A stretch of DNA of 64,000 bases from an uncultured Methanoregulaceae archaeon (GCA_963701095.1 OY969564.1:1056001-1120000), one strand, 5' to 3'. Counted from the first letter of the stretch, positions 30,720-61,802 are shown. Notes: generated from the letters alone by a model not told the origin. Program-made: numbers and translations.

Positions 30720-30824
30720 TTTGTAGTACTGGCATTGCGGGACATAAATAGGAGATGTCAGGGTACCGTTCCCTCTGCTTATGCGTATTATTTATTAATC
30801 CCCAGTGCCAACAATTGTACTCCT

Positions 30825-30898
30825 GCCCTAGTAGCTCAGACTGGGAGAGCGCCAGACTGAAGATCTGGTTGTCCCCGGTTCAAATCCGGGCTGGGGCA
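30825..30898 (+). tRNA. tRNA-Phe(GAA)
   Basis: GCCCTAG acceptor / CTGGGGC-A; anticodon arm CCAGA-CTGAAGA-TCTGG; T-arm GGTTCAAATCC. Confidence 0.97.
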
Positions 30899-30900
30899 TT
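30887..30900 (+). repeat. attL core CGGGCTGGGGCATT
   Basis: 3' end of tRNA-Phe, identical to 43057-43070. Confidence 0.88.
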
Positions 30901-31354
30901 CGGACAAAGGGTTACATTCTAATTCTAATTTCGGGCTTAATTTGCCCGTATTTTCCCTTTGGCTTTTACGCATAAAAACTGATCTCTGATATTCCGCTCA
31001 TCGTCGAGCGGGTCATTTTCCTATGATGAGTGCGAAAGATCCTATATGCCTCAAAACAGGGGTTCTTTTCATACGCCACATACTTTTACCCATCGATGGG
31101 AACTTTTGCCAATAGAACGCGATGGCGAACCTTCTCTCTATATTCCATGGGTATCCTGATGGCACGGGCCTAATGGTTTGCCGGAACAGCCGGTCCCCGC
31201 GTGGTTGGTGTTCCGGGAGGGTTTGCTGTATACGGACTGAACGGTCTAAACAGTGTGAACAACCGTTTTCAGAAGTGAACGAATCGGAAAATAGGCCGGG
31301 CTGGATACCTTTATTGGCTCGGAAAAATAATTGCCCCATAACGAAGATGAGAGA

Positions 31355-31591
31355 ATGAGCCTTGTTTCCTTTTGCGGGAAGGTAGCGGCGGGAGTCTCTG
31401 TTCTAATTGTGCTCGCAGTTATTGGCCTACTGGTCCTTGCCGTGGTCCTGATAGGTGTTGGAGCTTATGAATCGGCAACAAACCCTCACATCACCCAGCA
31501 GACAGCGCAGGAGTACCAGCAATTACAGGAGAATATCAGCCATGCGCGGGCAGGGATCTCCGGTGCTGTGGGTAATGTGACGGGGGGTTGA
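31355..31591 (+). CDS. Small single-TM protein
   Basis: Hydrophobic N-terminal helix, 78 aa. Confidence 0.55.
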   Translation: MSLVSFCGKVAAGVSVLIVLAVIGLLVLAVVLIGVGAYESATNPHITQQTAQEYQQLQENISHARAGISGAVGNVTGG

Positions 31592-31706
31592 ATCGGTTCA
31601 CGATTCTAATAAGTTGATGGTTAGTATGGAATTGTTAATGTTGTAAAAAATCGGTTACCAAACGCTTTCTTATCAGACTCGTATATTTCAAAAACATCGC
31701 GATCAT

Positions 31707-33866
31707 TTAAAACGGTGAAAGATGAGTGTCGATATATTTTTTGGCAAATTCGGCAACCAACAGGTTTCTCGACAAATAACGATCATATTTCTCATTGGAA
31801 ATATTCTGAATCTTCGCTGCAATCTCTTCGGCGGAGGGACAATTTTCAAGAAGCGAGTGATAGATATCCTGAATTTGTGAGGGGGATACCCCCTTGAATT
31901 TTAATGCGATCTCTAGATCCTCTACATCCAATCCGCCGAATGCTTTCCCAAGAATATAGAGGGACCGGTGTTTTGCAGATCCGGTCCAGGTAAACCAGTA
32001 CGTATTGGGCCCATCGATCACAAATGAACCTGTTGCAAGTCCCGCCTCCAGAGCGGCAGCCTGTGCCTCTTTCAGTATCAGTTTTGCATTTTCGTCAAGA
32101 TACTCAGGGATATAATTGGATGTGAGCAGCTCTCGCATTTTCTCTCGTACCCTTGGGTGAATATCAGAACCAAGCCCCCCCGAATAATGGGAAGTTTTCC
32201 CCCCCTTCGAGGGTATGACATACATTTTCTCTTTTTTCAGATTTAGTTCAATAATTTCCCACCGTTTTCCAGCTAAAATCAGGAATTGACGAGTTTCAAG
32301 GTCTGGAACGAATTGGACACTCCCAATTTTTCGTCCCGCAGATATGACATCAAGTTCAATTGCCGAAACAAATGCCGAATAAAAATCAAAATTTTTAACA
32401 ATTTTTTCCCCTTTTAATCCCAGAATCACAAGTCCGGAGGAATCCTGATCAACCAGATCGGCAATTTTGAGCCCGTGTAATATCTGAATAAAATCCTCCT
32501 GAGTGACATTATGGAACGCACCATCACTAACAAGCGTATCAAAGAGATCCTGAACCGTTGCTCCTCCTCGTTCTTTGATAACGCTCAAAATCTGTTGAAT
32601 CAATGTGGAAAAATGAAAAAGATCCGTTTGTGGTGGTTCGCACCACTTCTGAAACAAAAGTTCGGACATCGCCAGAGCCCGAAGAAATTCGGGATATAAT
32701 CTGTCAACAATATTCTCCGTTTTCTCGGGTTGAGAAATAAACATTATGAGGATTGAAGGATCACCCTCTTTACGTCCGCTTCTTCCCAGACGTTGGGCTA
32801 ATGAGTTCACCGACCAGGGAGCACCAATCTGTCCGATTCGGGATACTTTCCCGATATCAATTCCCATTTCCAATGCACTTGAACAAAATACAGAGATGTG
32901 TGGATTTGATTTCAGGGAATTTTCCACAGTTTCACGTTCGGTTATTGAGAGTGAACCATGAAAAATTTTAATGTTTTCAGGGTTTCCATATCTTTTTTCC
33001 ACGGTTCTTTTAACTGCATCTGTATAGTATTCCAGCATTTGACGACTATTGATGAAGATTAGGGAATTTCCTTTATTTTGCTCATCAAAGTAATAGATAA
33101 TATCTTCAATTAAAGAGGGATTTCGAGTTTTCTCATCTGCGCTGTCAGCATCCGGCTCATTATCTGGGAAATATCCTCGGATCAAATAACAGATATCCTT
33201 TTGTTCAATCGGATCTGTGATAAGCGAGACAGAGGAAGGATCTCGTGGGATTAACCACTGTTTTGCCAGTTCGGGATCGCCTATTGTTGCAGAAAGACCT
33301 ACAATCCTCACATCTCCTTTACTTTTATGCATCGCCCTAGACAGCAGACTTTTGAGATGGGCTCCTCTTTCTGTTCCAATAAAGGAATGCATCTCGTCAA
33401 TAACAATAAATGAGAGAGATTTAAAAAGATTTGAAAGATCATCCGAGTGATTGATAAACAATGATTCGATGGATTCAGGCGTGATAAGAAGAACTCCTGA
33501 CGGATTCTTCAGGAACTTCTTTTTTGGATCGGATCCAACATCACCGTGCCATTTGAAAACGGGGATTTCTGCGGTTTTGCATAATACTTCCAGACGTTCA
33601 AACTGATCATTGATCAAAGCTTTTAAGGGACCAACGTATATGGCAGAGATACCTCCATCATTTCTATCCACTATTTGCGAAAGGATAGGTAGAAATGCGG
33701 CTTCAGTTTTTCCTGATGCAGTTTGTGCAGATATAATCAGATTCTTGTTCGTGTTAAAAATTTCATGGATTGCATCTACCTGAATGGGCCTTAAGTCCAC
33801 CCAACCCATTTTGTATAGGATATATTTCAACTTTGGATGAAGTTGTTCGGAAGCAGATTTTTCCAT
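31707..33866 (-). CDS. Lhr-like DEAD/DEAH helicase (Shango SngC-like)
   Basis: QTASGKT, PLKALINDQ, DEMH, SAT, QRLGRSGR, FYSAF; follows a DUF2791-type ATPase. Confidence 0.85.
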   Translation of the reverse strand: MEKSASEQLHPKLKYILYKMGWVDLRPIQVDAIHEIFNTNKNLIISAQTASGKTEAAFLPILSQIVDRNDGGISAIYVGPLKALINDQFERLEVLCKTAEIPVFKWHGDVGSDPKKKFLKNPSGVLLITPESIESLFINHSDDLSNLFKSLSFIVIDEMHSFIGTERGAHLKSLLSRAMHKSKGDVRIVGLSATIGDPELAKQWLIPRDPSSVSLITDPIEQKDICYLIRGYFPDNEPDADSADEKTRNPSLIEDIIYYFDEQNKGNSLIFINSRQMLEYYTDAVKRTVEKRYGNPENIKIFHGSLSITERETVENSLKSNPHISVFCSSALEMGIDIGKVSRIGQIGAPWSVNSLAQRLGRSGRKEGDPSILIMFISQPEKTENIVDRLYPEFLRALAMSELLFQKWCEPPQTDLFHFSTLIQQILSVIKERGGATVQDLFDTLVSDGAFHNVTQEDFIQILHGLKIADLVDQDSSGLVILGLKGEKIVKNFDFYSAFVSAIELDVISAGRKIGSVQFVPDLETRQFLILAGKRWEIIELNLKKEKMYVIPSKGGKTSHYSGGLGSDIHPRVREKMRELLTSNYIPEYLDENAKLILKEAQAAALEAGLATGSFVIDGPNTYWFTWTGSAKHRSLYILGKAFGGLDVEDLEIALKFKGVSPSQIQDIYHSLLENCPSAEEIAAKIQNISNEKYDRYLSRNLLVAEFAKKYIDTHLSPF

Positions 33867-33882
33867 TTTTTTATCCTTTTAT

Positions 33883-35178
33883 TCATAATTTCAAATTTGC
33901 TAAGTCTCCGGTCGGATTTTTCTTGATTATTGAACTATCCTGCTTGAGTATGTCTTTCCATGACCTATCTGGGTGTGTTTCGAGAAGGGAGAGAAACTTC
34001 ACAAAACTTTTTACAGTTTCGCGCGGGTTCATATAGAAATCAGATCCCAAAATTTTCGAGCACTTAGTCAGAAATGCCTTCATTCCTTCATCAGTAACTA
34101 AATATTTTTCCGTGTCTCCATTGGCAAATACATCTCGGATATTTTCAAGGAGAAGATATGTGTCCTCTGGTGATAGGTTCCCCAATTTGATAACAGGACT
34201 ACGGGAATTTTTCAAATCCGGTGCGATCATCTTTTCAAGAGGGTTTTCTCGCAGTTTATAGTCAAGCGCGGGATAACTCGCAACACCATGATGGCTGTCA
34301 TCTAAAAAATCATCTGTGCCAGCAAAAATAAATCCTATACCACTGGTACTTCCCTGTATACAATCATTAAGTATGTCCAGTATTGTTTTGTAGTTCGAGT
34401 TCCTTGACTGGGCAACGTTCAAATGGTGGGATATGGCTCCCATCTCATCAAGAGTTACGAGAAAACCGGAATATCCTGCTTTCCGTACAAATCGTGCCCA
34501 TAATTTCAGATAATTATAGTAATTACTATCGTCGATAATTGTTCGAACTTTTAAATCCCGTTGTGCATCGGTCTTTGTTGGGTATTCTCCATAGAGCCAT
34601 CGAAGAGAAGCATCCATTAATTCGTCGTTGCCAGATTCAAATCCTTCGAAGTATTTAGTTAGAACCAATTCAAAATCATAACCATTGACATAATTCTGAA
34701 GATCTTCCTTGAGGTCATTGTGAATCTGGGATAAGATCTGTTTGTTGTCTTTTCCCTCGCTTCGTAGTTTATAATCAACATCAGAAATATATCGTTCAAT
34801 GATGCTTTTGAGAGCACCACCATCAGGTCTTGCTTTTACCGACAAATTATGCATCAATTCCGAGTACAATGCCCGTGCCTTGCCTTGGGTTGAATATAAG
34901 AGATGTCCTTGGCTGATATCCGCATGAGCGACTACAAATTTTCTATCGAGTGCTACAATACGGGAAAGGGTAAGAAAGAAACTTTTTCCGGACCCATAAC
35001 GCCCAATAATGAACCGGATAGCTGTCCCGTCATCTTTAATTCTTTCCAAATCGGTTACGATGGCAGCAATTTCATCATCTCTTCCGACTTGTATGTGTTG
35101 TAGGCCGATTTTTGGAACGAGGCCCACAGAAAGAGACATGAGTATTGCATCCCTTTCCTTTGGTTTAATTTTCCCCAT
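33883..35178 (-). CDS. DUF2791/BrxD-like P-loop ATPase (Shango SngB-like)
   Basis: GLVPKIGLQHIQVGR, GRYGSGKS Walker A, GYSGFLVTLDE Walker B. Confidence 0.85.
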   Translation of the reverse strand: MGKIKPKERDAILMSLSVGLVPKIGLQHIQVGRDDEIAAIVTDLERIKDDGTAIRFIIGRYGSGKSFFLTLSRIVALDRKFVVAHADISQGHLLYSTQGKARALYSELMHNLSVKARPDGGALKSIIERYISDVDYKLRSEGKDNKQILSQIHNDLKEDLQNYVNGYDFELVLTKYFEGFESGNDELMDASLRWLYGEYPTKTDAQRDLKVRTIIDDSNYYNYLKLWARFVRKAGYSGFLVTLDEMGAISHHLNVAQSRNSNYKTILDILNDCIQGSTSGIGFIFAGTDDFLDDSHHGVASYPALDYKLRENPLEKMIAPDLKNSRSPVIKLGNLSPEDTYLLLENIRDVFANGDTEKYLVTDEGMKAFLTKCSKILGSDFYMNPRETVKSFVKFLSLLETHPDRSWKDILKQDSSIIKKNPTGDLANLKL

Positions 35179-35207
35179 AATACCAACTGAACTTTCAGAA
35201 ATATATG

Positions 35208-36743
35208 TTATCTCATATTGATTCGGATAGTGTTTTCCTGCATCTCAAGCAAGGGATTATCGAATTTCAATACTTCTTCTGCCCATTCGTTAATATCGTC
35301 AAATGTCGAAGTTAGGCTGATTGCCCCCAGGTTACATTGTATGAGGATTTTCGTAAAATTTTCTGTAGATATCTCTGTTAATCCTTCAATATTTTTTAAA
35401 ACGGGATAATACCTTGAATCAAGACGATTCAAAGTATCCAGCGGGAATTGTAGATCATATCCTTGATTTTGGTTAACCGCAGGTTTTTCTGTCAGCTGAG
35501 AACTGGTTAATTCGGTTTCATCAGAAGAAACACCATCTTTCGAACCGAGTATTGTATCCATTTTGTCTTTGTTTTTATTGTGTTTTATCCGTTTTTCTTC
35601 GATCTCTACCAAATTTAACGAAATATAAGTTGGATCAGGATGTAATGTCTCTTCGCTCTCTTGAGTGATGGAGAAATCAATATCCTTTATTGAGGATGCT
35701 GTATTGTCAGGCCCAACACTCGGGAATTTAACGAGAGATTCACCCGTGAGAGAACGATCATTATCCGGTTCTTGATCCGTTGTTGTATCAACAAAGGGAA
35801 TAGATATTTGATTTGGTAAATTATCTTTATCGAAATCGTCGTTATTCTGAACGGACTCTTGATCTTTGAGAGGTTTTACGTCTTCAAAAAAATCGTCCAA
35901 TTTTTTTAGAGACTTTGCGGCATCACTGTAATCAATAAGATCAGAATCTTGTATCTGCTCATTAGGAATTGATTCATCTTGTAACGGAATGCTCTCTCCA
36001 CGGTTTGAAGGACCTGATTTTATTATTAGGACTGGATGCGGCCGAACCAATGTTCTCGCTACTTCTTCCGGTGTTGTTTTCATTGCTGAAACAGAACGAT
36101 TTGTAGGAGTTTCATAAGGTATTTTTGAGGATACATTCTGTTCTTTTTTGATGAGCACGTTTGGTACGACGTTCACCCTTGTGAAAGGTGGGTTCGATGG
36201 CTTTTCTGTAGGCTCTGATTGTGTGGACTTCCGGTTGTCGATAGTTTTTTGTTGGTTTTGAGTGTCGATCAATACGGGTGAAATTTCATTTTTTATTTTT
36301 GCACCGCAATGAGGACAATATTTTGCAGTGTCGTCAGTAATCAGCATGTAACATTTTGAACACCGAATTGGGTTTTCACTTCTAATTGTTTTTTTATAAG
36401 CGGAATGCATACGGGCACTAATAATAAGAAAATAAATGAATGAGATCAGGGTGAGTATGCCAAAAAAACTGAATATGCATTTTATCAAGCATAACTGATA
36501 ATTTATATTTCTTGGATCTTTTCTTTCATAATTGAGGAAAATGCCGTCCAAAATCAGATTTATCAACAAAATGAGTCCTAATAACATCGCAATAGGACTA
36601 TGATAATTTGGAGAATCAATCTCAAAAAATAAAGAGAGAAACGCCAATCCAAATAAACCGGATATAACGATATCCAATCCGATAACGCAGTGGAAAATTA
36701 TCGAATACCTGAAAGATAGATACTGGGTTTTGGCCCCATCCAT
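35208..36743 (-). CDS. Membrane protein with zinc ribbon and C-terminal TerB-C-like domain (SngA-like)
   Basis: ~3 N-terminal TM helices, CSKC...CPHC, long acidic linker, C-terminal FDDINEWAEEVL..PLLE. Confidence 0.65.
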   Translation of the reverse strand: MDGAKTQYLSFRYSIIFHCVIGLDIVISGLFGLAFLSLFFEIDSPNYHSPIAMLLGLILLINLILDGIFLNYERKDPRNINYQLCLIKCIFSFFGILTLISFIYFLIISARMHSAYKKTIRSENPIRCSKCYMLITDDTAKYCPHCGAKIKNEISPVLIDTQNQQKTIDNRKSTQSEPTEKPSNPPFTRVNVVPNVLIKKEQNVSSKIPYETPTNRSVSAMKTTPEEVARTLVRPHPVLIIKSGPSNRGESIPLQDESIPNEQIQDSDLIDYSDAAKSLKKLDDFFEDVKPLKDQESVQNNDDFDKDNLPNQISIPFVDTTTDQEPDNDRSLTGESLVKFPSVGPDNTASSIKDIDFSITQESEETLHPDPTYISLNLVEIEEKRIKHNKNKDKMDTILGSKDGVSSDETELTSSQLTEKPAVNQNQGYDLQFPLDTLNRLDSRYYPVLKNIEGLTEISTENFTKILIQCNLGAISLTSTFDDINEWAEEVLKFDNPLLEMQENTIRINMR

Positions 36744-36932
36744 GTTGAAGAATATATTGTGGGGGGACGTTATATTTTCCCTAGGTCTGATATCGATCTA
36801 ACAATGATGAAAATACGGCAAATTGTTTTTGAAAAACGCTCAAAATCCGGATTTTTGTAAGAAGGGTCAGGCCGGGATCCGGATCGAAAATTCAGATGTG
36901 AGTCTGGAATGAGTGTGAGGAGTAATAGGCGT

Positions 36933-37535
36933 TTATATCCCGCGCCTCTTCCGGGCTCGATAGAGGGTCATTACAGGGACATTGAAATGCTGTGCGATGT
37001 CTTCCCAGTTATCCCCCGCTGCTCTCATCTGTTCAACCACTGCAAAGTCTATATCCGCGCGGGGACGGCCAAGAGTCTTTCCCTCATCACGCGCGCGGTC
37101 CAGTCCCAATTTTGTTCTCTCGACAAGGTTATCCCGCTCCCGCTGTGCAACCCAGGAGAGGACCATTAAGAGGAGCTGCCGGATGTTCTTATCTTCCGAG
37201 TGAGTAAAGGCCTCGTTTGGTGACAGACTCCATACAAGAACGCCAAGACCTTCGATCTCCTCTATGATGTTGATAGTCTCCAGAGTCGTACGGCCGAGGC
37301 GGGAGATCTCATACACATAGAGGTATTTTACCGTCTCCCTGTGCTCTTGGATAAATGATAACAGACGGGAAAAGGCGGGTCTCTCATGGGGCTTCTTGGT
37401 CCCGGAGACACCCTTGTCTATAAAGATACAGTCCCGCACCACACCGGCTTTGATAAGCTCCCGGCACTGGTTATCCGGGTCCTGTTCCATCGTTGAAACC
37501 CGGACATATCCAACTTTCTCACATTTGAATGACAT
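36933..37535 (-). CDS. Serine recombinase (resolvase/invertase) with C-terminal HTH
   Basis: GYVRVST catalytic Ser, DKGVSG, SRLGR, ERTKLGL..AR..G..LGRP. Confidence 0.92.
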   Translation of the reverse strand: MSFKCEKVGYVRVSTMEQDPDNQCRELIKAGVVRDCIFIDKGVSGTKKPHERPAFSRLLSFIQEHRETVKYLYVYEISRLGRTTLETINIIEEIEGLGVLVWSLSPNEAFTHSEDKNIRQLLLMVLSWVAQRERDNLVERTKLGLDRARDEGKTLGRPRADIDFAVVEQMRAAGDNWEDIAQHFNVPVMTLYRARKRRGI

Positions 37536-37846
37536 AACAATAACCTATTAACTTAATTGCATATAACAATATCGTTCTTTTTTGTTATATCTCCCCTTAG
37601 CAGTACATTAGAATTTATTACGAAATATTTTGTTTTGAGATAAATTATTCAAGAAAATTTTCATAATTGTGTGTACGTAAGGGTAGGCCAGCACCTCGGT
37701 GGGGAGCCTCCCTTGCCCACATAGTTTAGACACTAATATAAAAATATTCTGTTTTGTTCGCGGTCAATCCACTACATGAAAGGTTAGTAATGCGTGACGG
37801 TTCGTAAAGTTAGAAAATGAATCTACTCTGACCTTGTAAGATATTG

Positions 37847-38326
37847 TTACCCGGATAAATTACTTTTTATCACTTTCTTAAATTCTTCTAACTTCATTGT
37901 CTCTGGTTTAGAAAAACCCGCGTCTTGTAATTTTGATGGAATCCGGTACTTAATCAGGTTCTTATCTGAAGTTAAAAAATAGTTATCAGAATATGCAATT
38001 GCATAAGCCAGATGTGTCCGATCTGTGGGTTCACGAATCATCCGTGTATCAATCTCATCTTCTCCCATCTGAAAGCAGAGGATACGCACACCATCATTAG
38101 GAAAATGAACCGCGATGTTCCAATCATCAAGGAAGCCGTTTAATGCAAAAATATAATCCATTCCGTTTTCTTTTTCGTGCATCTGGGTAAACGCTTCACC
38201 CAAAACCGAAATCGATGTACAAATATTATAACCAGCGTTTAACGCATGTTCCAAAGTTGTTTTTAGCTGCGGTTTCTCAAAACACTGAAAAAAAATAGGT
38301 GTATCTAAAAAGAGGGAGTGATTCAT
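37847..38326 (-). CDS. PIN-domain (VapC-like) ribonuclease toxin
   Basis: FLDT, VLGE, DRTHLAYA, FLTSDKNL acidic tetrad pattern. Confidence 0.8.
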   Translation of the reverse strand: MNHSLFLDTPIFFQCFEKPQLKTTLEHALNAGYNICTSISVLGEAFTQMHEKENGMDYIFALNGFLDDWNIAVHFPNDGVRILCFQMGEDEIDTRMIREPTDRTHLAYAIAYSDNYFLTSDKNLIKYRIPSKLQDAGFSKPETMKLEEFKKVIKSNLSG

Positions 38327-38481
38327 GCGAGGATCGCTTTAAGACGTTTCATCATAGCACGGTATTCATCTTCACCAATGGCAGATGATATCTTTCCCTT
38401 GGTCACCGAGCCCCCATAGGGAAGCATCCCACGTTGGTAAGGTTTACCAATTACTTCATCCGGATTGAACTTTTTAGTCAT
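38323..38481 (-). CDS. Putative 52-aa antitoxin
   Basis: RBS GGTGGAGG before ATG at 38481; ATGA overlap with the PIN gene. Confidence 0.6.
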   Translation of the reverse strand: MTKKFNPDEVIGKPYQRGMLPYGGSVTKGKISSAIGEDEYRAMMKRLKAILA

Positions 38482-38686
38482 ATCCAGCCTCCACCCTTCG
38501 TTCTGAATATCATGTATGCACATACATGATATTAAATCCTCACATGTTTCATGACACATTTCGTTCCATAGCGTCGATGAAAACTTGATATCATTATACT
38601 ATCTCTTTCGTTTTTAAGCTTAGAAAAGTATCTATTCAGAGGATTAATGATCCTGGTTTCAAAGTCCCCTCAAAGCCACGGGTAAC

Positions 38687-38796
38687 ACTCAAAGTACTCC
38701 CACTTTTTAGAGATATACCTCTCGTATATATTTTGTATTTGTTCTTTTATTTTCTATTAGACTGATTTGAGAAAAAAAAGGAGGAGTACTTGGAGT
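38687..38796. repeat. 22-bp inverted repeats (19/22 match) flanking an AT-rich core; candidate replication origin
   Basis: ACTCAAAGTACTCCCACTTTTT (38687-38708) versus reverse complement of 38775-38796, ACTCCAAGTACTCCTCCTTTTT. Confidence 0.6.
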
Positions 38797-38808
38797 CAGA
38801 AAAGAATG

Positions 38809-40542
38809 TTAAATCAGGCTTTCCGGCTCTGGTTTTACCTCGTTGAAATTTCCATTCCAAGAGTAAGGGCCCTGGTAAACGGGGATGTTGCACTTCCTGT
38901 CACCAATTCGTAAAGAGGTCTTAGTAGGGGTGAGCTTGTATGCTTGCAGGTCCCGGGTAAATTTGTTTAGTGAGGGCATCCTTTTTCTCGGATCTATATG
39001 TTCGAGATCACAAAACTTTTGGTACTGTTCAAAGAATTTCTTACGGTCGAACATGCAGATGTCGGATGCCCTAGCATTCTCTGTCATCTTATCTTTGATG
39101 AACTGGCAGAGCGGATCCGCTGCCATGCTCCAACGTTCCATCACCCCTTCCGCATCCCTGTTTATGGTAAGCTTACCCTTTTTCCTGATGGATCCGATTG
39201 CCTCGATTACGAGGTTCAGGAAGCTCGTGTACATCTGATTAGTGAACATCCGGGCCGTGAAGGTATCATCTACTTCGTAAGAGTATGGAAAACGGACATA
39301 CTCCCATCGTTCCCAAAATGCAGGGTCATACTTCACGTCATCGGGATATTTCGGCGGATGATTACAGGTGAATACGTGCGGACAGGTTATAGTACCCTTG
39401 TAGGACTGTCGGCCCTTCCGTTCGATATTATGACGGCAGGACCCGGTAAACGTTTTGAACTTCCCCACATTTTTCAGCGGTATCTCCGAGAGGTCATCGT
39501 AGATATTGAGTATCTTACCTTCGAGGTCCCCGGCCACAAAACGATCTTCGCATATTGATTGGAGAGAGCGGGCGGATATTTGATCATTCCCGAAAAACCC
39601 GGTTAAAAACTCAATGTACGTACTCTTGCCGGCGTTTGGTTCGCCTTGGGCGATATAGTTCTTCTTGTAAGTCGTCTGGAGCTGTGCCTGGAGGATTGCC
39701 TGTGCTGCGATCTGAATCAAGAGCGGAACATCTTCGGGCTCTACCCACGAAAGCAGAAGGTTCCGAGCCGCATCTCCCTTGATACTGGCGTCATAGGTAA
39801 CGGGAATACGATAGGTGAATAGGTGCTGCGGTCCAGGCGGCAGGAGTTTGCCGGCTCTGGTCTTATCATCGAGTTTCAGGATACCATTTTCTAACGGGAT
39901 AAGATCCTTTACCTGATTAAATGGGTACTCGCACTGGGGATTTGTGGCAAGAAGATAAGCGAGGATATCCCGGATGTCTCGTGTGATACTACACTTTGCC
40001 CCGGTCACTTCAATGATGATGCGGATCGCCTGCTCCAAATCTCCCGCATTTTCCCGATAAATGCCGCTTTCTTTGTCGTAAACAAAGAGTGTTTTGTTAA
40101 AGCTCATCGTGTTAAATTGCTCGTGCAGGTGTATTGCTATCGCTGGATGCTCAAGTACGACCGTGCCCCTACTGCTTGTCCTGGTGAAACTGTCTAAAAG
40201 TGCGTGCTGCCGCTGTGCCTCCCGGTCCCGCTGCATGATCTCATATCGCTCGCGGACCTTCGGATCTTGTGCTGCCTGAGTAAGAGTCTCTCGGAGGGTA
40301 TCCGTGTTCATCAAGTCGAACCCTTTTGGCAGGCGCTGGAGTTTATCAAGTGCGGCGCATAGTGCCGGGTGGTCCATGCTGGCGATCTTCGCATCAGGAT
40401 AATCTGGGTGCTGCCATACTGCCGGGGCTGGTGCCAGTTGCTCGGCTGCGGGTTCTGAGATGGATCGGTTCATGGTGGCGATCAGAAATTCTTGGGTCTT
40501 TGCGTCTACGAGTGCTGCCCTGGTTGGTACGGTTTCAATCAA
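38809..40542 (-). CDS. SF3 (D5/P4-family) replicative helicase
   Basis: IPLENGIL and FTYRIPVTYD (D5_N-like), GEPNAGKS Walker A, NIYDD Walker B, FTCNHPP motif C, AFWERW. Confidence 0.85.
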   Translation of the reverse strand: MIETVPTRAALVDAKTQEFLIATMNRSISEPAAEQLAPAPAVWQHPDYPDAKIASMDHPALCAALDKLQRLPKGFDLMNTDTLRETLTQAAQDPKVRERYEIMQRDREAQRQHALLDSFTRTSSRGTVVLEHPAIAIHLHEQFNTMSFNKTLFVYDKESGIYRENAGDLEQAIRIIIEVTGAKCSITRDIRDILAYLLATNPQCEYPFNQVKDLIPLENGILKLDDKTRAGKLLPPGPQHLFTYRIPVTYDASIKGDAARNLLLSWVEPEDVPLLIQIAAQAILQAQLQTTYKKNYIAQGEPNAGKSTYIEFLTGFFGNDQISARSLQSICEDRFVAGDLEGKILNIYDDLSEIPLKNVGKFKTFTGSCRHNIERKGRQSYKGTITCPHVFTCNHPPKYPDDVKYDPAFWERWEYVRFPYSYEVDDTFTARMFTNQMYTSFLNLVIEAIGSIRKKGKLTINRDAEGVMERWSMAADPLCQFIKDKMTENARASDICMFDRKKFFEQYQKFCDLEHIDPRKRMPSLNKFTRDLQAYKLTPTKTSLRIGDRKCNIPVYQGPYSWNGNFNEVKPEPESLI

Positions 40543-40560
40543 TCCAGCGCACCCCCACCT

Positions 40561-40740
40561 TTATCCCTCATTAAAATTGTCTATCAGTCTCCATCTGCCA
40601 TCTTTGAGACATGCGACAGCAACCAGATAATGAAGTGGGCTGGTTGCTTTCAGGTGCTCCAGAGTCTCCTGGTCGATGGTGAAGCCCGGGATGGGCCGGG
40701 GTTGCGGCAAGGTTGAAGTACCGGAACAAAGAGAGCTCAT
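40561..40740 (-). CDS. Small hypothetical protein (59 aa, not in the ORF track)
   Basis: MSSLCSGTSTLPQPRPIPGFTIDQETLEHLKATSPLHYLVAVACLKDGRWRLIDNFNEG; ATGA overlap with the upstream gene. Confidence 0.55.
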   Translation of the reverse strand: MSSLCSGTSTLPQPRPIPGFTIDQETLEHLKATSPLHYLVAVACLKDGRWRLIDNFNEG

Positions 40741-40970
40741 ACGTCCACCTGCTTGTCAGTGCTGGATAGGGATGTCGGGGCCTTGGTGTTGGTAGCATTA
40801 TCGGCCCCTGCATTGCCTTCTTTCATTTTCCTTTCAAGTGCCAAGCGTAATTCCTTCGATAACGAAATTTCCTGTTCTTTTGCGAAATCTCGAAGATGAC
40901 GAGGTATGGTCACATTTGTATGAATTAATTCCTCGCCATCTGATCGAATTGTCAGTGTTACCATTTTCAC
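40737..40970 (-). CDS. CcdA-like ribbon-helix-helix DNA-binding protein
   Basis: TNVTIPRHLRDFAKEQEISLSKELRLALE. Confidence 0.7.
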   Translation of the reverse strand: MKMVTLTIRSDGEELIHTNVTIPRHLRDFAKEQEISLSKELRLALERKMKEGNAGADNATNTKAPTSLSSTDKQVDV

Positions 40971-40973
40971 TTC

Positions 40974-40996
40974 CTGTGGCGTGATTCACACCACAG
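40974..40996. promoter_or_regulatory. 23-bp palindromic operator in a divergent promoter
   Basis: CTGTGGCGTGA-T-TCACACCACAG (10/11 arms). Confidence 0.65.
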
Positions 40997-41054
40997 TTAT
41001 GTATATCGGTTCTGGGGTCAACATCCCTTTTAAATACAATTCAAATGTGACATT

Positions 41055-41750
41055 ATGCCTCCAACAAAAGGGCTTGCCGGAAGGAAAGCAAAATTTCTGG
41101 TAAAAAAAGGACAATTGACTCCTCTCCGAGAATCAAAGCCTCTCAGAATAGAGCTTTATAAGATGTACCTTGAAGCACGGATTGGAAAAGGGAGAGAAGA
41201 GCTACCCACTATTTTAAAATTCATAATTGAAAGAGGGAAAGAATCCCCAGATGGATGGGTTCCATATCCTGAAATTTTGACGCATATGAAAGAAGAGAAG
41301 TTTGACTTGTCTCGGTCTAGAATGAACCAAATCATGATAGATCTGGAAAAGCATAGGATTACAATCAGACAGAAGAGGAAAAACCTAGTTTTTTACAAAA
41401 TTTCAGGAGAGGCATTGACTCCAGTTTTAACAGATTATGGAGTTAGAATAGAATATTTACGTCTAAAAAGGGCGAACAACGAACTCTCAAATAAACTAGT
41501 AATTGCAGAGTCTATCCTCAGTGAACACGATTTAATGGATAATTACGAATCTGAACTTCAAAGAATACATGATGAAAATGAGAGAAAGAAAGCGCGCCGG
41601 AGACGAATGAGCAAAGATGAAATTTTAAGGGATATTTTACAGTTAACTCCAGATGAAATGACTATTAGAAATAAATCTATTGAATCTAGTCAAGCGGTAA
41701 TTCTGTTAGATGATCTGAAAAAATTAAAACAGACTAAAAATGATAGTTAG
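41055..41750 (+). CDS. Putative winged-helix regulator with coiled coil
   Basis: LSRSRMNQIMIDLEKHRITIRQKRKNLVFYKI wHTH-like segment. Confidence 0.55.
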   Translation: MPPTKGLAGRKAKFLVKKGQLTPLRESKPLRIELYKMYLEARIGKGREELPTILKFIIERGKESPDGWVPYPEILTHMKEEKFDLSRSRMNQIMIDLEKHRITIRQKRKNLVFYKISGEALTPVLTDYGVRIEYLRLKRANNELSNKLVIAESILSEHDLMDNYESELQRIHDENERKKARRRRMSKDEILRDILQLTPDEMTIRNKSIESSQAVILLDDLKKLKQTKNDS

Positions 41751-42991
41751 GCTTGATTTTTTGCCTGCACCTGTAAAAGTTCCATTTTAAACTTATCGAG
41801 TATGGCCTGATATTCCGGCTGAAGTTCTGCCTGCTCTTTCGATTTTTTTACCTTATCCATTGCTTCTTCGGTTAGCTCAAGGCCACAATTTCCACAGAAC
41901 GACAAGGTTGGACCATTGACTGTGAAACACCGGGGGCATTGTCGGGGTTCCAACGCTTCAGACTTCTTCTTTTTATCAGGTGCAATGACCCCATTCATAC
42001 GGGCTATCTCATTTTCGGTGTCAGTGTCGGTGAGATGGGCATACGTTGCAAATTGCTTTGTGATGATGTTGCCCCACATCATTTTCTTAATAATGCTCTC
42101 GCTGCATCCCTGTTGGATGAGATGAGTTATCCGCGAATGACGGAAGATATGTGGCGTTATATGCTTCTCTATTCCCGCTCTATGAGCTATCTTCGATAAT
42201 TGTTTTGCTACTCCCCGGTACTGGAGTGATTGATGCTTCCCGTTTGTCAAAAAAACAAACCCTTCATCGGTGATCTCACCGGGGTAATCGTTCTTCCATT
42301 GTGCAAGGTATGACCGGGCCATGACAAGGGGGATAAAACGGGGCCTCTCCGTCTTGTCATTGACATTTATTACAACATTCCAGTCAGTAAATTTTACTTG
42401 TTTCCAGGTAAGTTTGCCGAGCTCGCCAACGCGGAATCCGCCTTCATACAGACAGGCAATTAGGGCACGGTCCCGGGATATCTGACATGCTTGAATCATT
42501 GCCTTGATCTGATCCTCGCTAAGGATCTGTTCAGCTGTCTTGGTCATAGTATCGTACCCGGGGGTATGAATTTTGGACAGTTTCTTTTCATCAATGGTCG
42601 AGTAGTGGTTCTCTACAAGCCACAGATGAAACCGTTTTAGAAAGCGGATAAAATCCCCTATAGTGTTTTTCTTGTACCGGAGTGAGCCATCAGGATTTTT
42701 TGCATTTTTAATAGTATCTATAGCTGAATAGACATCAGATATGGTGTTTGTACGGTAAGGACCTACAAACTCCCTCAGTTGGGTGAGAACTACATGCAGT
42801 TTAAACGCCCGGCTGTTGCTGATCTGGGATATTGCTCTTGCTTCCGCGACAAATTCACGGATGAGCGCGGCGTCATCTTCCGTGATCATTCCACTCTTGA
42901 TCTTTTTTTCAAGAGTGTTGTTCGAGTATTCCACGTACTTTGCATCACTAGCATGGAAACGTGATGTTTGGATGGTGCTGGTAGCTGCCAT
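41747..42991 (-). CDS. Tyrosine recombinase/integrase with C-terminal zinc ribbon
   Basis: RDRA...GFRVGEL, DKT, HIFRHSR, MWG, Y(AHL); CPRC...CGNC; intact gene next to attR. Confidence 0.93.
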   Translation of the reverse strand: MAATSTIQTSRFHASDAKYVEYSNNTLEKKIKSGMITEDDAALIREFVAEARAISQISNSRAFKLHVVLTQLREFVGPYRTNTISDVYSAIDTIKNAKNPDGSLRYKKNTIGDFIRFLKRFHLWLVENHYSTIDEKKLSKIHTPGYDTMTKTAEQILSEDQIKAMIQACQISRDRALIACLYEGGFRVGELGKLTWKQVKFTDWNVVINVNDKTERPRFIPLVMARSYLAQWKNDYPGEITDEGFVFLTNGKHQSLQYRGVAKQLSKIAHRAGIEKHITPHIFRHSRITHLIQQGCSESIIKKMMWGNIITKQFATYAHLTDTDTENEIARMNGVIAPDKKKKSEALEPRQCPRCFTVNGPTLSFCGNCGLELTEEAMDKVKKSKEQAELQPEYQAILDKFKMELLQVQAKNQA

Positions 42992-43056
42992 AACAGTGAA
43001 TCAGCATCAAAAGTATATAAAGAAACTGCTTGGAATGTAACCTTATATGTATGTGT

Positions 43057-43070
43057 CGGGCTGGGGCATT
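43057..43070 (+). repeat. attR core CGGGCTGGGGCATT
   Basis: Identical to the tRNA-Phe 3' end 30887-30900. Confidence 0.88.
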
Positions 43071-43226
43071 GGAACTCATTTTAAATTTTAAATCCGGGCT
43101 GTATTTTCCCGCATTTTCGTTTCCTTGTTGTTCCCCTAATCCTTTGGAGGGATTGCCCATAGAAACCCTGATTCAGAGCACACAATAACGGAATATTCAA
43201 GCAGGGTCACCACAAACAAGAGGATA

Positions 43227-50966: not shown

Positions 50967-52415
50967 TCAGGTACGTATCAGTAATTCGGAGAGCTTTTCG
51001 TGCACCCTTACCATGGCAAGGGTATCGAGTTTACAGTATGCCAGTAATTCCGCCTTTTTTTGTTCAATCTCTTCCGGGCTCATCATTCCCTGTGCCATCA
51101 TTGCAAAAACCACCATGGCACTACCTCCGTTGGCAATGGCAAGGCCATCATAAGAAAGATCAGTGACGAGGGCCGGGAGGACTACTTTTATGGAAGTTCT
51201 CCCGGCAAACTGGGGATGACGGACACATTTCACGGATTTTTCCAGATCCACAATTCTTTCGATCAATGCCTGGAGCGGTTGTTCAAGATCCGGAAATGCC
51301 TCGCAGAGTGCTTTGATCATTGTTCTTTCATAATTACTGTAGGTTATAATCGAACCTTTCTTATCGAGGTCAGCAATCAAACGCTGTGCAAGTTCTTTCC
51401 TGCAGTCTGAGTGGGGATTTGCAATATATTCACGGTGTGCGGTGATATTTCCAAGCCGGTCACAGATATGGATGGAATACTGTGTCGGGAATATATCATA
51501 GGGGCCGAGTTCGGGATAGAGCGGAATTACTGTTTGTGATGTTTCAAAATCAAGATAATATGCAGGCCAGACGACTTCATCCAGTTTCTCTTTCATTACG
51601 GGATCGATATCGACTTCCCCGCTTTTTATACATTGAACGACCTGCCTCTGAAGAGGAGTCAATGTAAAAGATTCAGGGATATCGCATATTGATAGTATCC
51701 CTGCTGATGAGAGTGCGGTAAACGCCTTTTCACTCAGTCGCGGTATCTGGAAGATATGATTTTCAATATCCTCACCGATGCATCGCTTAAATTCACTGCA
51801 TTTTTTGCAATTCATTGTTGATTCGGGCTTGGGTTCATCGGCGGCATGAACAAAATGATCGACTTTTGACAAGTATGGTGAGAATTCCTTGACCTTTTCG
51901 AGGACATCGCCGGTACAATTAATTCGAACAAAGAGATTTTCCAGGGGCATCCCAAGCCGATATTCTTTGTTTATTAACTGAAGGATGATATTTGATGTTT
52001 TGAAACCGGATTTTTGGGCAATCAATGTCGTATAGGCCATATCTGCGATATGATCCTCTTTTACATTCAGACCTGACTTAACTTCAACGACATCCCACGA
52101 TGTGCCTTTCCGTGTGAGGATATCGGCTTTTGCAACATAATTTCCCGTGATGAAAGTGCCTTCGAATATTGTATGTACCTTCGCATCTGCGGTAAGTTCA
52201 CGGGTCAACGTTGCGGCAGACTCATTATCAGGTGCATTGACAAACACCCCATCGGGATACAATTCTCGTGCTAGTTTTCCGATATATTTCCCCTGGTTCA
52301 TCCAATATTGTGTCTCAGGGGACCGGTCTTCTGGTATTTTATCGTTTTTCAGCCGCCAGCCGAACGTAGGACATGCAATGGTATTAAGGAAGATATTCTT
52401 CGTGAGGGACGCCAT
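50967..52415 (-). CDS. DUF2779-type protein: PD-(D/E)XK (Cas4-like) nuclease plus RNase H-like domain
   Basis: ADIL...VEVKS...D.AY, CKKC..FKRC, YYLDFET, YCKLDTLAM. Confidence 0.75.
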   Translation of the reverse strand: MASLTKNIFLNTIACPTFGWRLKNDKIPEDRSPETQYWMNQGKYIGKLARELYPDGVFVNAPDNESAATLTRELTADAKVHTIFEGTFITGNYVAKADILTRKGTSWDVVEVKSGLNVKEDHIADMAYTTLIAQKSGFKTSNIILQLINKEYRLGMPLENLFVRINCTGDVLEKVKEFSPYLSKVDHFVHAADEPKPESTMNCKKCSEFKRCIGEDIENHIFQIPRLSEKAFTALSSAGILSICDIPESFTLTPLQRQVVQCIKSGEVDIDPVMKEKLDEVVWPAYYLDFETSQTVIPLYPELGPYDIFPTQYSIHICDRLGNITAHREYIANPHSDCRKELAQRLIADLDKKGSIITYSNYERTMIKALCEAFPDLEQPLQALIERIVDLEKSVKCVRHPQFAGRTSIKVVLPALVTDLSYDGLAIANGGSAMVVFAMMAQGMMSPEEIEQKKAELLAYCKLDTLAMVRVHEKLSELLIRT

Positions 52416-52680
52416 CTGTTTAGGAATTATTGCTCGGTATGGATATAATGGGTGGCAATAAAGTCGTTAGTCACGAGGTTTCAGGGGAGTAAAGATCCGG
52501 CCATGAGTGAGTGAAAGTGAAGGGACGCAAAATATCTCTCGGGAGGTGTTAACCGAAGAATATCTATTATAATGTGACAAGTAATATCCCAATAATTATT
52601 TTCTCCCGAATTAACGAATGACAAGATTAATGCCAGTATGAAATATATAAAATAATAATTAAATTGGGTTGAGTGGGAGA

Positions 52681-55605: not shown

Positions 55606-55609
55606 CGGC

Positions 55610-56101: not shown

Positions 56102-56110
56102 GATGATTTT

Positions 56111-58657: not shown

Positions 58658-58666
58658 GGTGCATGC

Positions 58667-61600
58667 ATGGCAATGACGTTAGCAGAATTCCACGAGCGGA
58701 TTAGAACACAGCAGTTCGATCCGCTGACCAATTTCAAGCTGAATGTCGATGCCTACCGTATTCACCTCAAGCACAAATACGATCCTGTTTCGGTCGTCTC
58801 CATCGGTAAGATCGATCCACTGCCCCATCAAGTCGAAGCGTTTGTCAAGATGATGGCGATGCTACGCCCGTCGAGCGGCATTTCCGGCAGGATCCGGATG
58901 CTGCTTGCCGATGATGTCGGGTTGGGAAAGACCATTATGGTCGGCCTCGTCATGAAAGAGCTCCTGCTCCGCCATAAAATACAACGTGTGCTTATCATAT
59001 GTCCATCGGGACTCCAGATCCAGTGGAAGGAAGAACTCAAGGAAAAATTTAACGAAGATTTCACCATCATCAAGGGACAAATTGAAGGAAATCCCTATGC
59101 AGAAAATGATAAGGTGATCCTCTCGGTCGATATCGGGAGAAATGAAGAAAAAACAAAGATGCTCCTCTCAACAAAATGGGACCTCATTGTCTTCGATGAA
59201 GCGCACAAACTCAAACCCGGAAATATGCGGTACAACCTTGCCGAAGAGATCAGCACAAAAACCGCCCATCTCATTCTCGCATCCGCTACGCCCCATGACG
59301 GTAAAGTTGAGAATTTCCTCGGGCTTGTTAAATTGATCGATGAAGAGATGGAGAATATAACCGACAGCGGAGAACTAAAACAGTATCTTGATCCGCTCAT
59401 GATCCGTCGACTCAAGGAAGATATTGTCAATTTCCGGGGAAAAAAGATCTTTCCTAAAAGATCGATACCGCAAACCCTTGAAATTCAATATTCTCCGGAA
59501 GAACTCGAATTCTATAATGGTGTTGAGGATTATGTCAGGACATATTACCAGAAAGCAGAGTCCGGCGGGTTGACCTCTGTTGTCCTCGCACTCTATATCC
59601 TCCACCGGCGGGTTAGCTCATCAATCCAGGCCGGTGTCATCTCACTCAGGAAACGCCGGCTCAATCTCCTCCGTCCCTACACAGAGATCACGGAAAAAAA
59701 CGAAACTGATTATCTCTGCTATCTTGAAGAAGGAAATGAGGAGAAACGGGAAAAGGCCGAAGAGGAAATTATCAGCGCCACAGCAGCACTGACACAGGAA
59801 GAGTTGCGGGTTGAATGCGAAGCCCTGGATAGGTTGATTGAACAAGGCCAGAACCTTCTTGACAGTCAGCAGGATCGGAAATTCCAGCAACTCAAAACAC
59901 TTGTCAATACTATCCGGACAGAACACCCCGGCGATAAGATTATTATTTTCACGGAATTTACTGACACACTTCGGTTCCTTGAAAAAAAGCTCATAGCGGA
60001 TAATTTCCTCATTGCGAAGATCACCGGGGGATTATCACCAGAAGAAAAGAAAGAGCAAGCACGACTGTTTGAAAAACGGTCCGATATCCTGCTTGGCACA
60101 GAGGCTGCCGGGGAGGGATTGAACCTCCAGTTCGCCAATATTGCGATCAACTACGAACTTCCCTGGAATCCAAACAGGCTTGAGCAGCGCATCGGGCGGG
60201 TGTACCGGTACGGACAGAAAAAGGAAGTTTATATCTATAATTTCAAAACAGCATTCCCCATCGATGACGCAGTTCTCACAAAAATTCTTGAAAAGATGGA
60301 GCATATCCGGGCCATCTATGGATCGAATACCATCGATGTGATCGGGTCGATGATATCAGAGAAAGATATCCTTGAAATTTTCCGCATCGCGCAGGGTAAA
60401 GGTTCTCCAGTTGACAAGGTGGATCAGCTCTTTACTGAAAAACTCGATGTCTTCAAAGACATTGACCAGTTCTTTATCAAGGACTCATTTAATCTCGTCA
60501 ACGTGACATCACTCACGCCCAATATTGACAGGTGCATCAACAATTTCGATATCGAACGCTTCTTCCTCACGTGGGCAGAGAATTCGCGGTCTGTGGATGT
60601 TCAACCCGCAGAGAAAGAGGCTGGCAAGTATCATATCCGGATCCCCTGCACTACGACTCCGGCTGAAGCGCTCTGCACGGATAGGGAATCCCAGAAATAT
60701 GATGACATAGTTGTAACCGGGGTATTCGATCCGGAAAAGAAAGGCACCTATCTCGCTCTTGGTCATCCGGTGATCAGCTGTGCGATTGATGATTCCCTAA
60801 CAAAACACACGTGTACAATCATAAAATGCCCGGAAAAAGGCATTATACTCACTTACATTCTCAAATTTTTCGATGGGCGTGGAAGAGAGATCTACGCAGA
60901 GCCCGTCCTGTTATATCAGACACAAAATGATTGTAAAGGACTGGATCCTCTCAATGTCTGGGAGTTTGAAGGATATGATCGGGATCAGGTGCTCAATGTT
61001 GATGGCGAATATTTTACCAAAGCTATCAGGGATCTTCTTGTCGACCCGGAATTTGCCTTAAAGGATTATATTTCCAAGACAGAAGTGTTTGTAAGAGAAA
61101 AACACGAAAAGGATCTCGAAAGAGAATTCAATTACGCGTATACAGAATACCAATGGAAAATTAAAAACCAGAATCTGAAACGGGAAAAATTTGAGGAGAC
61201 CGGACAGAAATACCTCATCGAGCCGGTTGATAACAAGATTCTCCAATTGAAGCTGGAACTCAAATCACTGAGGCAGGATAATCTGCAATCAAAAAATATA
61301 ACCTGGAAACTCTGTGGTCCGGTCGATCTTGCCCTGCTGCTCCCTCCATCCGATCAGAAAAACTGGGATCCCAAATCCGAGCAGGCACGCATCGATCTTG
61401 AAAAGTTGAAAAGGGAGATCGAACTTAAAGGAATGAAAATTGTATGCCAGTTTGAGAGAGAACACGGGAGGATCCCAGAAGATGTTTCGAAAGAAACCGT
61501 CAGGGGCTATGATATTCTCTCAAAATCTAAAAATGAAAAACGGCATATCGAAGTAAAATCATTTTCGACAACCAATCCTATACAGATCTCTTCGAACGAA

Positions 61601-61798: not shown

Positions 61799-61802
61799 TT
61801 TT

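Follow-up and report, generated by a model that had tools for sequence, protein, structure and literature searches.

The 64,000-nucleotide stretch of DNA analysed here, referred to as the window (GCA_963701095.1 OY969564.1:1056001-1120000), comes from an uncultured Methanoregulaceae archaeon, a methanogen of peat and soil (genome G000), and contains an integrative element that spans 12,184 bp, bounded by two 14-bp repeats, at the 3' end of a tRNA-Phe(GAA) gene. From its right end inward, the element carries a tyrosine integrase gene, a divergent pair of regulator genes, a small open reading frame (ORF), a superfamily 3 (SF3) helicase gene, and an inverted repeat with an AT-rich site, followed further inward by a PIN-domain gene with a 78-aa ORF, a serine recombinase gene, and a three-gene operon. 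The GC content of the element is 0.424, compared with 0.498 for the 20 kb on its left and 0.481 for the whole genome. The tRNA-Phe(GAA) gene is the sole tRNA gene in the window, and an Rfam scan found nothing beyond tRNA. The features at the two boundaries are as follows, with G041 denoting a second genome that holds the same element.

30824..30899, plus strand: tRNA-Phe(GAA), the integration target (ARAGORN; Rfam tRNA, 65.8 bits), whose last 13 nt come from the att core
30887..30900, plus strand: attL core CGGGCTGGGGCATT, an exact repeat, at which identity to G041 climbs from about 0.8 to 1.0
30901..31100, no strand: tRNA-proximal arm of the element, holding GGTTACATTC, GTATTTTCCC at 30947, and a 40-bp block at 31047-31086
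43033..43042, no strand: GAATGTAACC, a 10-nt sequence located 14 nt to the left of the attR core and reverse-complementary to GGTTACATTC
43057..43070, plus strand: attR core CGGGCTGGGGCATT, an exact repeat, where identity to G041 stops at 43069
43071..43120, no strand: about 50 nt outside attR that resemble the element's own tRNA-proximal arm, GTATTTTCCC included

Integration site and transfer between species

The 14-mer CGGGCTGGGGCATT consists of the last 13 nt of tRNA-Phe plus one further base, and it has two exact copies in the window, with no third even when two mismatches are allowed. In a shuffle test, 6 of 100 shuffles yielded at least two matches at two or fewer mismatches, so the repeat is weak evidence alone and the comparative data decide. 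Such data were provided by G041, a second Methanoregulaceae genome with the same element at tRNA-Phe, the flanks of which are 78-85% identical to those of G000. Calculated per 200 nt, identity between the two genomes was 0.72-0.83 over 29883-30880 and 0.995-1.0 over 30881-35080. From the attL core to 35201 there was 1 mismatch in 4,315 nt, and over 35193-43069 the identity was 99.987% across 7,877 nt, with the sole difference being an indel that frameshifts the serine recombinase in the G041 copy. The identity therefore starts and stops at the cores, in support of the 14-bp repeats and the 12,184-bp extent given in the original prediction. Because it ends one base short of the end of the 14-mer, the core common to G000 and G041 is 13 bp, the 14th base being present only in G000.

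Moreover, a third species (G015, locus L019) was found to have an empty site, in which the flanks are contiguous across the 13-nt core. Its positions 1-1008 align with the left flank and tRNA of G041, its positions 996-1543 align with G041 from the attR core onward, and the two alignments overlap by exactly the 13-nt core. The left-flank gene at 29898-30719 is a core gene, being present in 38 of 41 related genomes, and it adjoins tRNA-Phe in nine of ten same-genus loci, while element genes were detected near tRNA-Phe in none of these ten loci (tblastn, about 18 kb). The search for empty sites in relatives, which the original prediction had proposed as a check, thus came out in its favour. Since its ends are precise, a relative has the site empty, and copies in different species are nearly identical, the integrative element is real and has recently moved between species, and the earlier description of a discrete element with integrase, regulators, SF3 helicase, and cargo was confirmed.

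Further detail was found in the sequences next to the cores. The 10-nt GGTTACATTC at 30910-30919, found 9 nt to the right of the attL core, forms an inverted repeat with GAATGTAACC at 43033-43042, and in a circular form of the element the two would flank the core in the manner of core-type integrase sites. The 40-bp block at 31047-31086, located at the tRNA-proximal end, is conserved in a related element (locus L053, described below). As judged from its resemblance to the tRNA-proximal arm, the stretch at 43071-43120 is probably the remnant of an earlier related element, beside which the present element integrated in tandem.

A gene of about 665 aa encoding a Na+/H+ exchanger with a TrkA domain directly follows tRNA-Phe in seven of the ten same-genus loci. 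In G000, its counterpart lies 48,379 bp past tRNA-Phe, the DNA between being accessory with a GC content of 0.45 (G000:C1:1086900-1135278; window 30900-64000 and beyond), which makes the element only the tRNA-proximal portion of a wider variable region. The exchanger-TrkA gene of G000 is represented by two overlapping ORFs of 444 and 173 aa (L020:17252-18894; G000:C1:1135252-1136894), a split reading that possibly reflects a frameshift or an assembly error. The sole candidate for a far att site of the whole 48-kb region was a 12-mer inside a coding frame, which was taken as a chance match.

The element was also detected in public metagenomes, in which at least half of its sampled words were found in 14 entries from five studies (soil, bog, and freshwater sediment); no RNA dataset was among the metagenome entries listed as containing element words. 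Contigs from all four runs examined carry the element, with a right flank of the G041 type in three runs and a third host context in one, and short contigs join the tRNA end to sequences resembling unoccupied sites. Neither an attP joint nor a skip joint was seen in the contigs of the four runs, a result that has no bearing on excision given that assembled contigs drop rare forms. Two variants were observed, namely a 12-nt insertion in sngC at 32103 (run X10) and a 22-nt insertion at 36751, just upstream of the sngA-like gene (run X11).

In G041, an island of 41,373 bp lies between the sngA-like gene and sngB of the element (G041:C1:1271511-1312883; L032-L034; insertion point at window 35193-35201), flanked by a 9-bp direct repeat, TTTCAGAAA. 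An integrase-like gene comes first in this island, which also holds KaiC-like, PAS, MCP/CheW, SIR2-STAND, TBP, and metabolic genes, and both the interrupted and the uninterrupted junctions are present in metagenome contigs. The island was considered as a possible helper provirus and was rejected as such, since it has no virion gene and its content is of sensor, chemotaxis, SIR2-STAND, and metabolic types.

Integrase, regulators and replication module

The element was scanned against four libraries, with Pfam applied to 15 ORFs and PADLOC, NCBIfam, and PHROGs applied to 12 proteins each. Outside the three-gene operon, the following features were recorded.

41747..42991, minus strand: tyrosine integrase of 414 aa with a C-terminal Cys4 zinc ribbon (Pfam Phage_integrase, 7.7e-25)
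41055..41750, plus strand: o231, a probable winged-helix regulator of 231 aa (Atlas structure entries like ArsR/SmtB, serving as a lead only; three homologues)
40974..40996, no strand: 11-nt palindrome CTGTGGCGTGA/TCACACCACAG, a candidate operator between the divergent o231 and o77 genes, which lie 84 nt apart
40737..40970, minus strand: o77, a ribbon-helix-helix-like regulator of 77 aa (weak Pfam CcdA match, 7.2e-4; sequence)
40561..40740, minus strand: 59-aa ORF with an excess of third-position mismatches in this frame, conserved in the related loci L053, L054, and L042
38809..40542, minus strand: D5/P4-type SF3 helicase of 577 aa, a putative replication protein (Pfam DUF5906 and D5_N; PHROG 'DNA primase', 5.7e-40)
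38687..38796, no strand: AT-rich stretch enclosed by a 22-nt inverted repeat (86% complementary), lying downstream of the helicase gene; the alignment with the related locus L052 reaches 38693
38323..38559, minus strand: 78-aa ORF, a putative antitoxin gene overlapping the PIN gene by 4 nt
37847..38326, minus strand: PIN-domain protein of 159 aa, a putative VapC-like toxin (Pfam PIN, 1.2e-4)
36933..37535, minus strand: serine recombinase of 200 aa, a resolvase/invertase with a helix-turn-helix (Pfam Resolvase, 7.4e-33; PHROG DNA invertase, 3.4e-43)
31013..31339, minus strand: 108-aa ORF, of which the last ~22 codons alone overlap the conserved block and whose translation has an implausible composition

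Residues R187, K213, H281, R284, and Y317 of the integrase and its four C-terminal Cys are invariant in an alignment of 13 relatives. Its NCBIfam XerA score of 108.3 bits falls below the equivalog cut-off of 220, so the integrase is not XerA itself. The integrase ORF is whole after integration, with the core 65 nt upstream of the gene, at the 3' end of the rebuilt tRNA, and a gene left intact on integration corresponds to classical type II of the archaeal scheme described in PMC8371274. Acting as a lambda-type tyrosine integrase, the enzyme would rebuild tRNA-Phe(GAA) by recombination between its 3' end and the 13-14-bp core. Paralogous integrases in G000 (58%, 45%, and 32% identical) were examined as possible copies of the same family and were rejected as parts of other elements without this helicase. 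An integrase-bearing insertion at G000:C1:347146-362243 has a 16-bp tRNA-Gly 3'-end repeat about 15 kb away, an insertion with a split integrase at G000:C1:2535904-2543613 has a 33-bp tRNA-Leu repeat about 7.6 kb away, and for the 58%-identical integrase at 169705, another tRNA-Leu is 16.4 kb away and a repeat was not detected.

For the regulators, o77 is 59-67% identical to its homologues in L042, L053, and L054, and o231 is absent from L053. The o231 gene on one side, and o77 with the 59-aa ORF and the helicase gene on the other, may share the palindromic operator, and the divergent pair would probably decide whether the element is integrated or free. The small ORF more likely follows the 59-aa frame at 40561-40740 than an 80-aa frame, since mismatches against three relatives concentrate at the third codon position of the former. 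The gene order put forward in the original prediction stands as given, with corrections for the frame of this small ORF, for the 108-aa ORF, and for the finding that the element is only part of the 48,379-bp region.

The sole PDB match of the helicase was 7ola, annotated as 'DNA primase' (4.2e-8), which we take to be a staphylococcal island primase-helicase. In a phage collection the helicase matched 89 records at 21-27% identity, 53 of them from Streptococcus, and among the 15 matches listed, those from Streptococcus bear satellite-phage labels; its matches also include true phages and archaeal spindle-shaped viruses. Once excised, the circle would be replicated by the helicase, with the neighbouring inverted-repeat/AT-rich site (38687-38796), a candidate origin or terminator, as a possible starting point. 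Further inward, the homologue of the PIN protein in L054, 43% identical, scores 41.2 bits for PIN, and the 78-aa ORF matched no family in the four libraries. The putative PIN toxin-antitoxin and the serine recombinase could stabilise the element and resolve multimers. The 108-aa ORF at 31013-31339, which also matched no family in the four libraries, is probably spurious and not a gene. No capsid, terminase, portal, tail, conjugation, or Cas1 gene was found in the element by any of these scans, which left its small ORFans unassigned, in agreement with the earlier view that structural and conjugation genes are missing.

The three-gene defence operon

The cargo of the element, which the original prediction had described as an antiviral cassette, was recognised by PADLOC as the defence system Shango. 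This system, as described in PMC10250203 and 10.1101/2022.05.11.491447, consists of a TerB-like protein, an ATPase, and a helicase, and protects Pseudomonas and E. coli. The three genes of the element are as follows.

35208..36743, minus strand: atypical sngA of 511 aa, with an N-terminal hydrophobic region, a zinc ribbon, a low-complexity linker, and a C-terminal TerB-C-like domain
33883..35178, minus strand: sngB, a BrxC/BrxD-family ATPase of 431 aa (PADLOC SngB, 4e-142; Pfam BrxC_BrxD, 2.1e-128)
31707..33866, minus strand: sngC, an Lhr-like DEAD/DEAH helicase of 719 aa (PADLOC SngC, 3.1e-221; Pfam DEAD and Helicase_C)

The operon resembles Shango in its three-gene order of first gene, ATPase, and helicase, in its strong SngB and SngC matches, and in the putative TerB-C-like tail of its first gene. 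SngC covers positions 3-710 of the 720-position PADLOC profile and matches Lhr-type helicases in the PDB at 1e-30; SngB covers positions 5-420 of 439 and had no PDB match by sequence. Unlike that of the known system, the first gene of the element is without TerB, having a transmembrane region and a zinc ribbon instead. To our knowledge, Shango has had no experimental test in archaea.

In the 511-aa protein, a hydrophobic region at about residues 15-115, which is probably membrane-spanning, is followed by a zinc ribbon at 126-157, a long low-complexity linker, and the C-terminal domain; neither TerB nor TerB_N was detected at E<=0.1. The C-terminus provided the sole TerB_C match in the whole genome. 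Among 300 Methanomicrobiales genomes, sngB orthologues that are 32-61% identical were found in 19, and the order sngA-sngB-sngC is kept at all 19 loci. The ORF directly upstream of sngB has Pfam TerB_C at 19 of 19 loci (E 4e-7 to 6e-21) and TerB at 17 of them. By tblastn, the C-terminus of the 511-aa protein matched 6 of the 19 canonical TerB_C domains at 32-39% identity, and it can be aligned with all 19, the invariant Asn and the near-invariant Trp of a DDIN-W motif being among the matching residues.

When SngB was modelled in complex with the C-terminal 140 aa of the 511-aa protein, the ipSAE was 0.73, compared with 0.00 for the best of three controls. Of 157 solved complexes, 116 attain the ipSAE mark, as do 2 of 215 mismatched pairs, counts that are only rough as our own alignments were used. 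The model runs had at least 84% of contacts in common, with a partner pLDDT of at least 72, and the DDIN-W motif lies in the predicted SngB interface. In this prediction, the TerB-C-like tail that is left docks on SngB and would hold ATPase and helicase at the membrane.

Searches for relatives of the whole 511-aa protein returned 36 matches among 1.84 billion cluster representatives, most of them covering the N-terminal membrane part only and four the C-terminal part only. Setting aside the latter, three matches extend beyond the N-terminal membrane and zinc-ribbon part, namely the protein's own cluster, a fragment, and one protein that is 44% identical; a word-based search found six near relatives. 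This domain arrangement is rare. Judged by sequence, the operon is a Shango system of a new variant, in which a membrane anchor and a zinc ribbon appear to stand in for the TerB part of SngA. Such a natural variant, with a predicted membrane anchor in place of the enigmatic TerB module, fits, and makes testable, the idea that it is through the first Shango protein that ATPase and helicase come to sit at the membrane. In addition to sngB, G000 encodes another ATPase of the SngB/BrxD type, a paralogue with about 26% identity (G000:C1:1985306-1986496), which occurs in nearly all genomes of three Methanomicrobiales families and is apparently a core gene.

Related elements and the kind of element

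Relatives of the element were found at other tRNA genes. At L053, the integrase, o77, and SF3 helicase are 65%, 67%, and 78% identical, respectively, and a 12-bp repeat with the tRNA-His 3' end bounds 10.56 kb. At L052, to which L051 and L022 are identical, the SF3 helicase is 81% and the integrase only 29% identical, and a 44-bp repeat with tRNA-Leu(CAG) bounds 12.07 kb. L054 is an 8.8-kb contig with SF3 at 70%, o77 at 63%, and PIN at 43% identity, and L042 has the integrase at 61% and o77 at 59%. In the element, L053, and L052 alike, 63-65 nt separate the att site from the integrase gene, upstream of which it lies. The cargo of L053 comprises zinc-ribbon membrane proteins and a PolB-like protein, and that of L052 and L054 comprises ORFans and a tape-measure-like protein; no PADLOC system was detected in the cargo of these three loci. 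The original prediction had proposed to look in related genomes for the same integrase and SF3 backbone with other cargo at tRNA-Phe, and a homologous backbone of this kind exists at tRNA-His and tRNA-Leu.

A helicase profile identified relatives in 40 of 401 Methanomicrobiales genomes, and a contig profile scan with the helicase alignment recovered only the three loci already found. In five more distant SF3 contexts (28-34% identical), a tyrosine integrase lies within about 4 kb in four, and none of their 71 ORFs matches a capsid, terminase, portal, or tail family (E<=1e-5). One of these relatives, in G300 (L110:13766-15454; SF3 28% identical), is a 9.9-kb element with a 31-bp tRNA-Val repeat that carries a GmrSD type IV restriction enzyme, and is a further small element of the wider class with defence cargo. 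There are therefore three bounded relatives of 9.9-12.1 kb, at tRNA-His, tRNA-Leu, and tRNA-Val, with differing cargo.

The tape-measure-like gene of L054 (7553-8830) matches Pfam PhageMin_Tail at 4.7e-20, and that of L052 (14101-16086) matches PHROG tape-measure families down to 4.6e-14. No mutual similarity was found between the two proteins, and INPHARED gave no match to that of L054. IMG/VR yielded no relative, whether queried with the helicase, its alignment, or the tape-measure-like protein of L052. Both genes occupy the cargo slot of elements that are too small for tailed viruses (12.07 kb for L052).

Taken together, the 12,184-bp site-specific element of Methanoregulaceae is probably an archaeal cryptic integrated element of the integrative-plasmid type, and it represents a new family within a known kind of element. 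Cryptic integrated elements of Thaumarchaeota, as reported by Krupovic et al. 2019 (PMC6563490), are integrase-bounded and mostly <20 kb (median 17 kb), and have replication proteins of mobile genetic element type, including SF3 helicases, as well as cargo for defence (restriction-modification, for example), while virion and conjugation genes are missing. The element is similar to those described in that report in its integration into a tRNA gene by a tyrosine integrase, its replication protein, its defence cargo, and its lack of virion and conjugation genes. It differs from them in occurring in Methanomicrobiales, which belong to another phylum, in its other protein families, in its helicase without a recognised primase domain, in its Shango cargo, and in the directly visible recent transfer between species. 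The integrative plasmids of the pT26-2 and pTN3 families (Thermococcales, Methanococcales), named in PMC8371274, are likewise archaeal and integrate at tRNA genes, with targets that are switched within a family. No core genes in common were detected, and many of these plasmids use 'suicidal' integrases that are split on integration, whereas the integrase gene of the element stays intact. The names Methanomicrobiales and Methanoregula have no occurrence in that 2021 review of archaeal integrases (PMC8371274).

Several observations weigh against this classification. Excision, a free circle, and replication were not observed; the metagenome data are assembled contigs only, for which reason excision and replication stay inferred, and in X9, the one run in which a host-flank contig could be compared, the depth of that contig (20.9) and of the other element contig (22.6) was about 1:1. 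Both G000 and G041 are themselves metagenome assemblies. The helicase has no recognisable primase domain, its score for TIGR01613 (P4-family primase C-terminal domain) being 72.7 bits, below the cut-off of 108.7, and the PIN match of 23.1 bits is just under its cut-off of 23.6. For the cargo, the PADLOC SngA model does not match the 511-aa protein, nor anything else in the genome in a search whose control matched no genome, and TerB_C scores 14.4-17.4 bits on it against a Pfam cut-off of 26.3, so the operon may not work as Shango does. Finally, the tape-measure-like genes in L052 and L054 suggest a tie to tailed viruses that a plasmid-like element leaves unexplained.

This last point bears on the possibility that the element is a satellite of an archaeal virus, excised and replicated on infection by a helper, packaged in helper particles, and spreading Shango with them, which we regard as unlikely. 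The P4-like satellites and PICIs (phage-inducible chromosomal islands) of bacteria (PMC9122126; PMC10085698) share with the element a size of about 10-15 kb, a terminal integrase, divergent regulators, a protein of the D5/P4-type primase-helicase family, a variable slot with defence systems, and the absence of structural genes. The 12.2-kb size and the order of integrase, regulators, SF3 helicase, and cargo, the match to 7ola, and the satellite-labelled Streptococcus records among the listed helicase matches all speak for such a relationship; however, the helicase is only 21-27% identical to satellite primases, the host is archaeal, and no helper is known. The defining genes of P4-like satellites and PICIs are psu/sid/delta, terS, ppi, and cpm. 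The element has no homologue of any of these or of a capsid gene, and no cos or pac site was identified. More generally, no packaging, capsid-remodelling, or virion gene was found in the element with Pfam, PADLOC, NCBIfam, and PHROGs, which archaeal equivalents of hijack genes may escape, and PhageMin_Tail, Phage_capsid, and TerL_ATPase, the three Pfam families searched, had no match in G000 or G041. A satellite's defining property, as stated in 10.1101/2025.02.15.638363, is the hijack of the virion machinery of its helper. The archaeal pSSVx, pSSVi, and SRCEs treated in the same source resemble the element in their plasmid-type replication module and carry at least one morphogenesis gene (ATPase or capsid protein) of their spindle-shaped helper virus, whereas the element carries none; pSSVi also integrates. 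In favour of a satellite, near-identical copies of the element in species about 20% apart need an efficient vehicle. The tape-measure-like cargo of L054 and L052 could be seen as incomplete virion modules of the kind that 10.1101/2025.02.15.638363 describes in archaeal satellites, and from this it might be supposed that the ~10-12-kb Methanoregulaceae integrase-SF3 family as a whole consists of tailed-virus satellites whose tape-measure-like gene exploits helper tails, the element having swapped this slot for a membrane-tethered Shango. We consider this broader version distinctly improbable. The two tape-measure-like proteins are dissimilar to each other, IMG/VR holds no relative by the searches given above, the 71 ORFs of the distant contexts match no virion family, and helicases of this family are used as well by true phages, spindle-shaped viruses, and plasmids. 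The PICI/P4 layout pointed out in the original prediction is therefore real, as is the resemblance of the helicase family, but it fits archaeal cryptic integrated elements and integrative plasmids equally well, and the satellite-like label was not upheld. Transfer of an integrative-plasmid type element by a helper virus is possible, but is not indicated. Were the broader tailed-virus version true, Archaea would gain their first satellite of tailed viruses, and methanogens their first as well.

A decayed provirus, that is, the integrase-replication end of a tailed or pleomorphic virus whose structural genes were replaced by defence genes and which is now immobile, would account for the tape-measure-like genes in relatives, for the frameshifted serine recombinase in the G041 copy, and for the 48-kb accessory patchwork around the element with the apparent remnant of an older element beside it. 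Such a dead remnant is nevertheless very improbable because the element is nearly identical in two species with flanks that differ by about 20%, the identity ending exactly at the att cores; furthermore, a third flank occurs in metagenomes, three relatives are bounded at 9.9-12.1 kb, and the integrase, helicase, and regulators are intact, with catalytic residues invariant in the 13 relatives. A fixed genomic island with a repeat that arose by chance, for which the shuffle test left some room, has next to no probability, being refuted by the identity step at the cores and the empty site in G015, and the same architecture recurs at three other tRNA genes.

An integrative-plasmid type element of this family is of interest in several respects. 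Methanomicrobiales are the main methane producers of peat and wet soil, and their mobile elements are almost undescribed. Here, a cleanly bounded element was caught just after crossing a species boundary, illustrating that small integrative elements carry defence systems from one uncultured methanogen to another. For genetic work on Methanoregula-like archaea, its integrase and att sites could become a tool. The element provides a useful example in a poorly studied group and not a new principle.

Beyond the element, the same variable region holds a probable second defence cluster at window 50967-63449.

50967..52415, minus strand: DUF2779/Cas4-like gene
52669..55605: DUF499 ATPase gene, with a gene for a DUF7680 protein also in the cluster
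56111..58657: DUF1156 DNA methyltransferase gene
58667..61798: SNF2-type helicase gene with NOV_C
61803..63449, minus strand: HNH endonuclease gene

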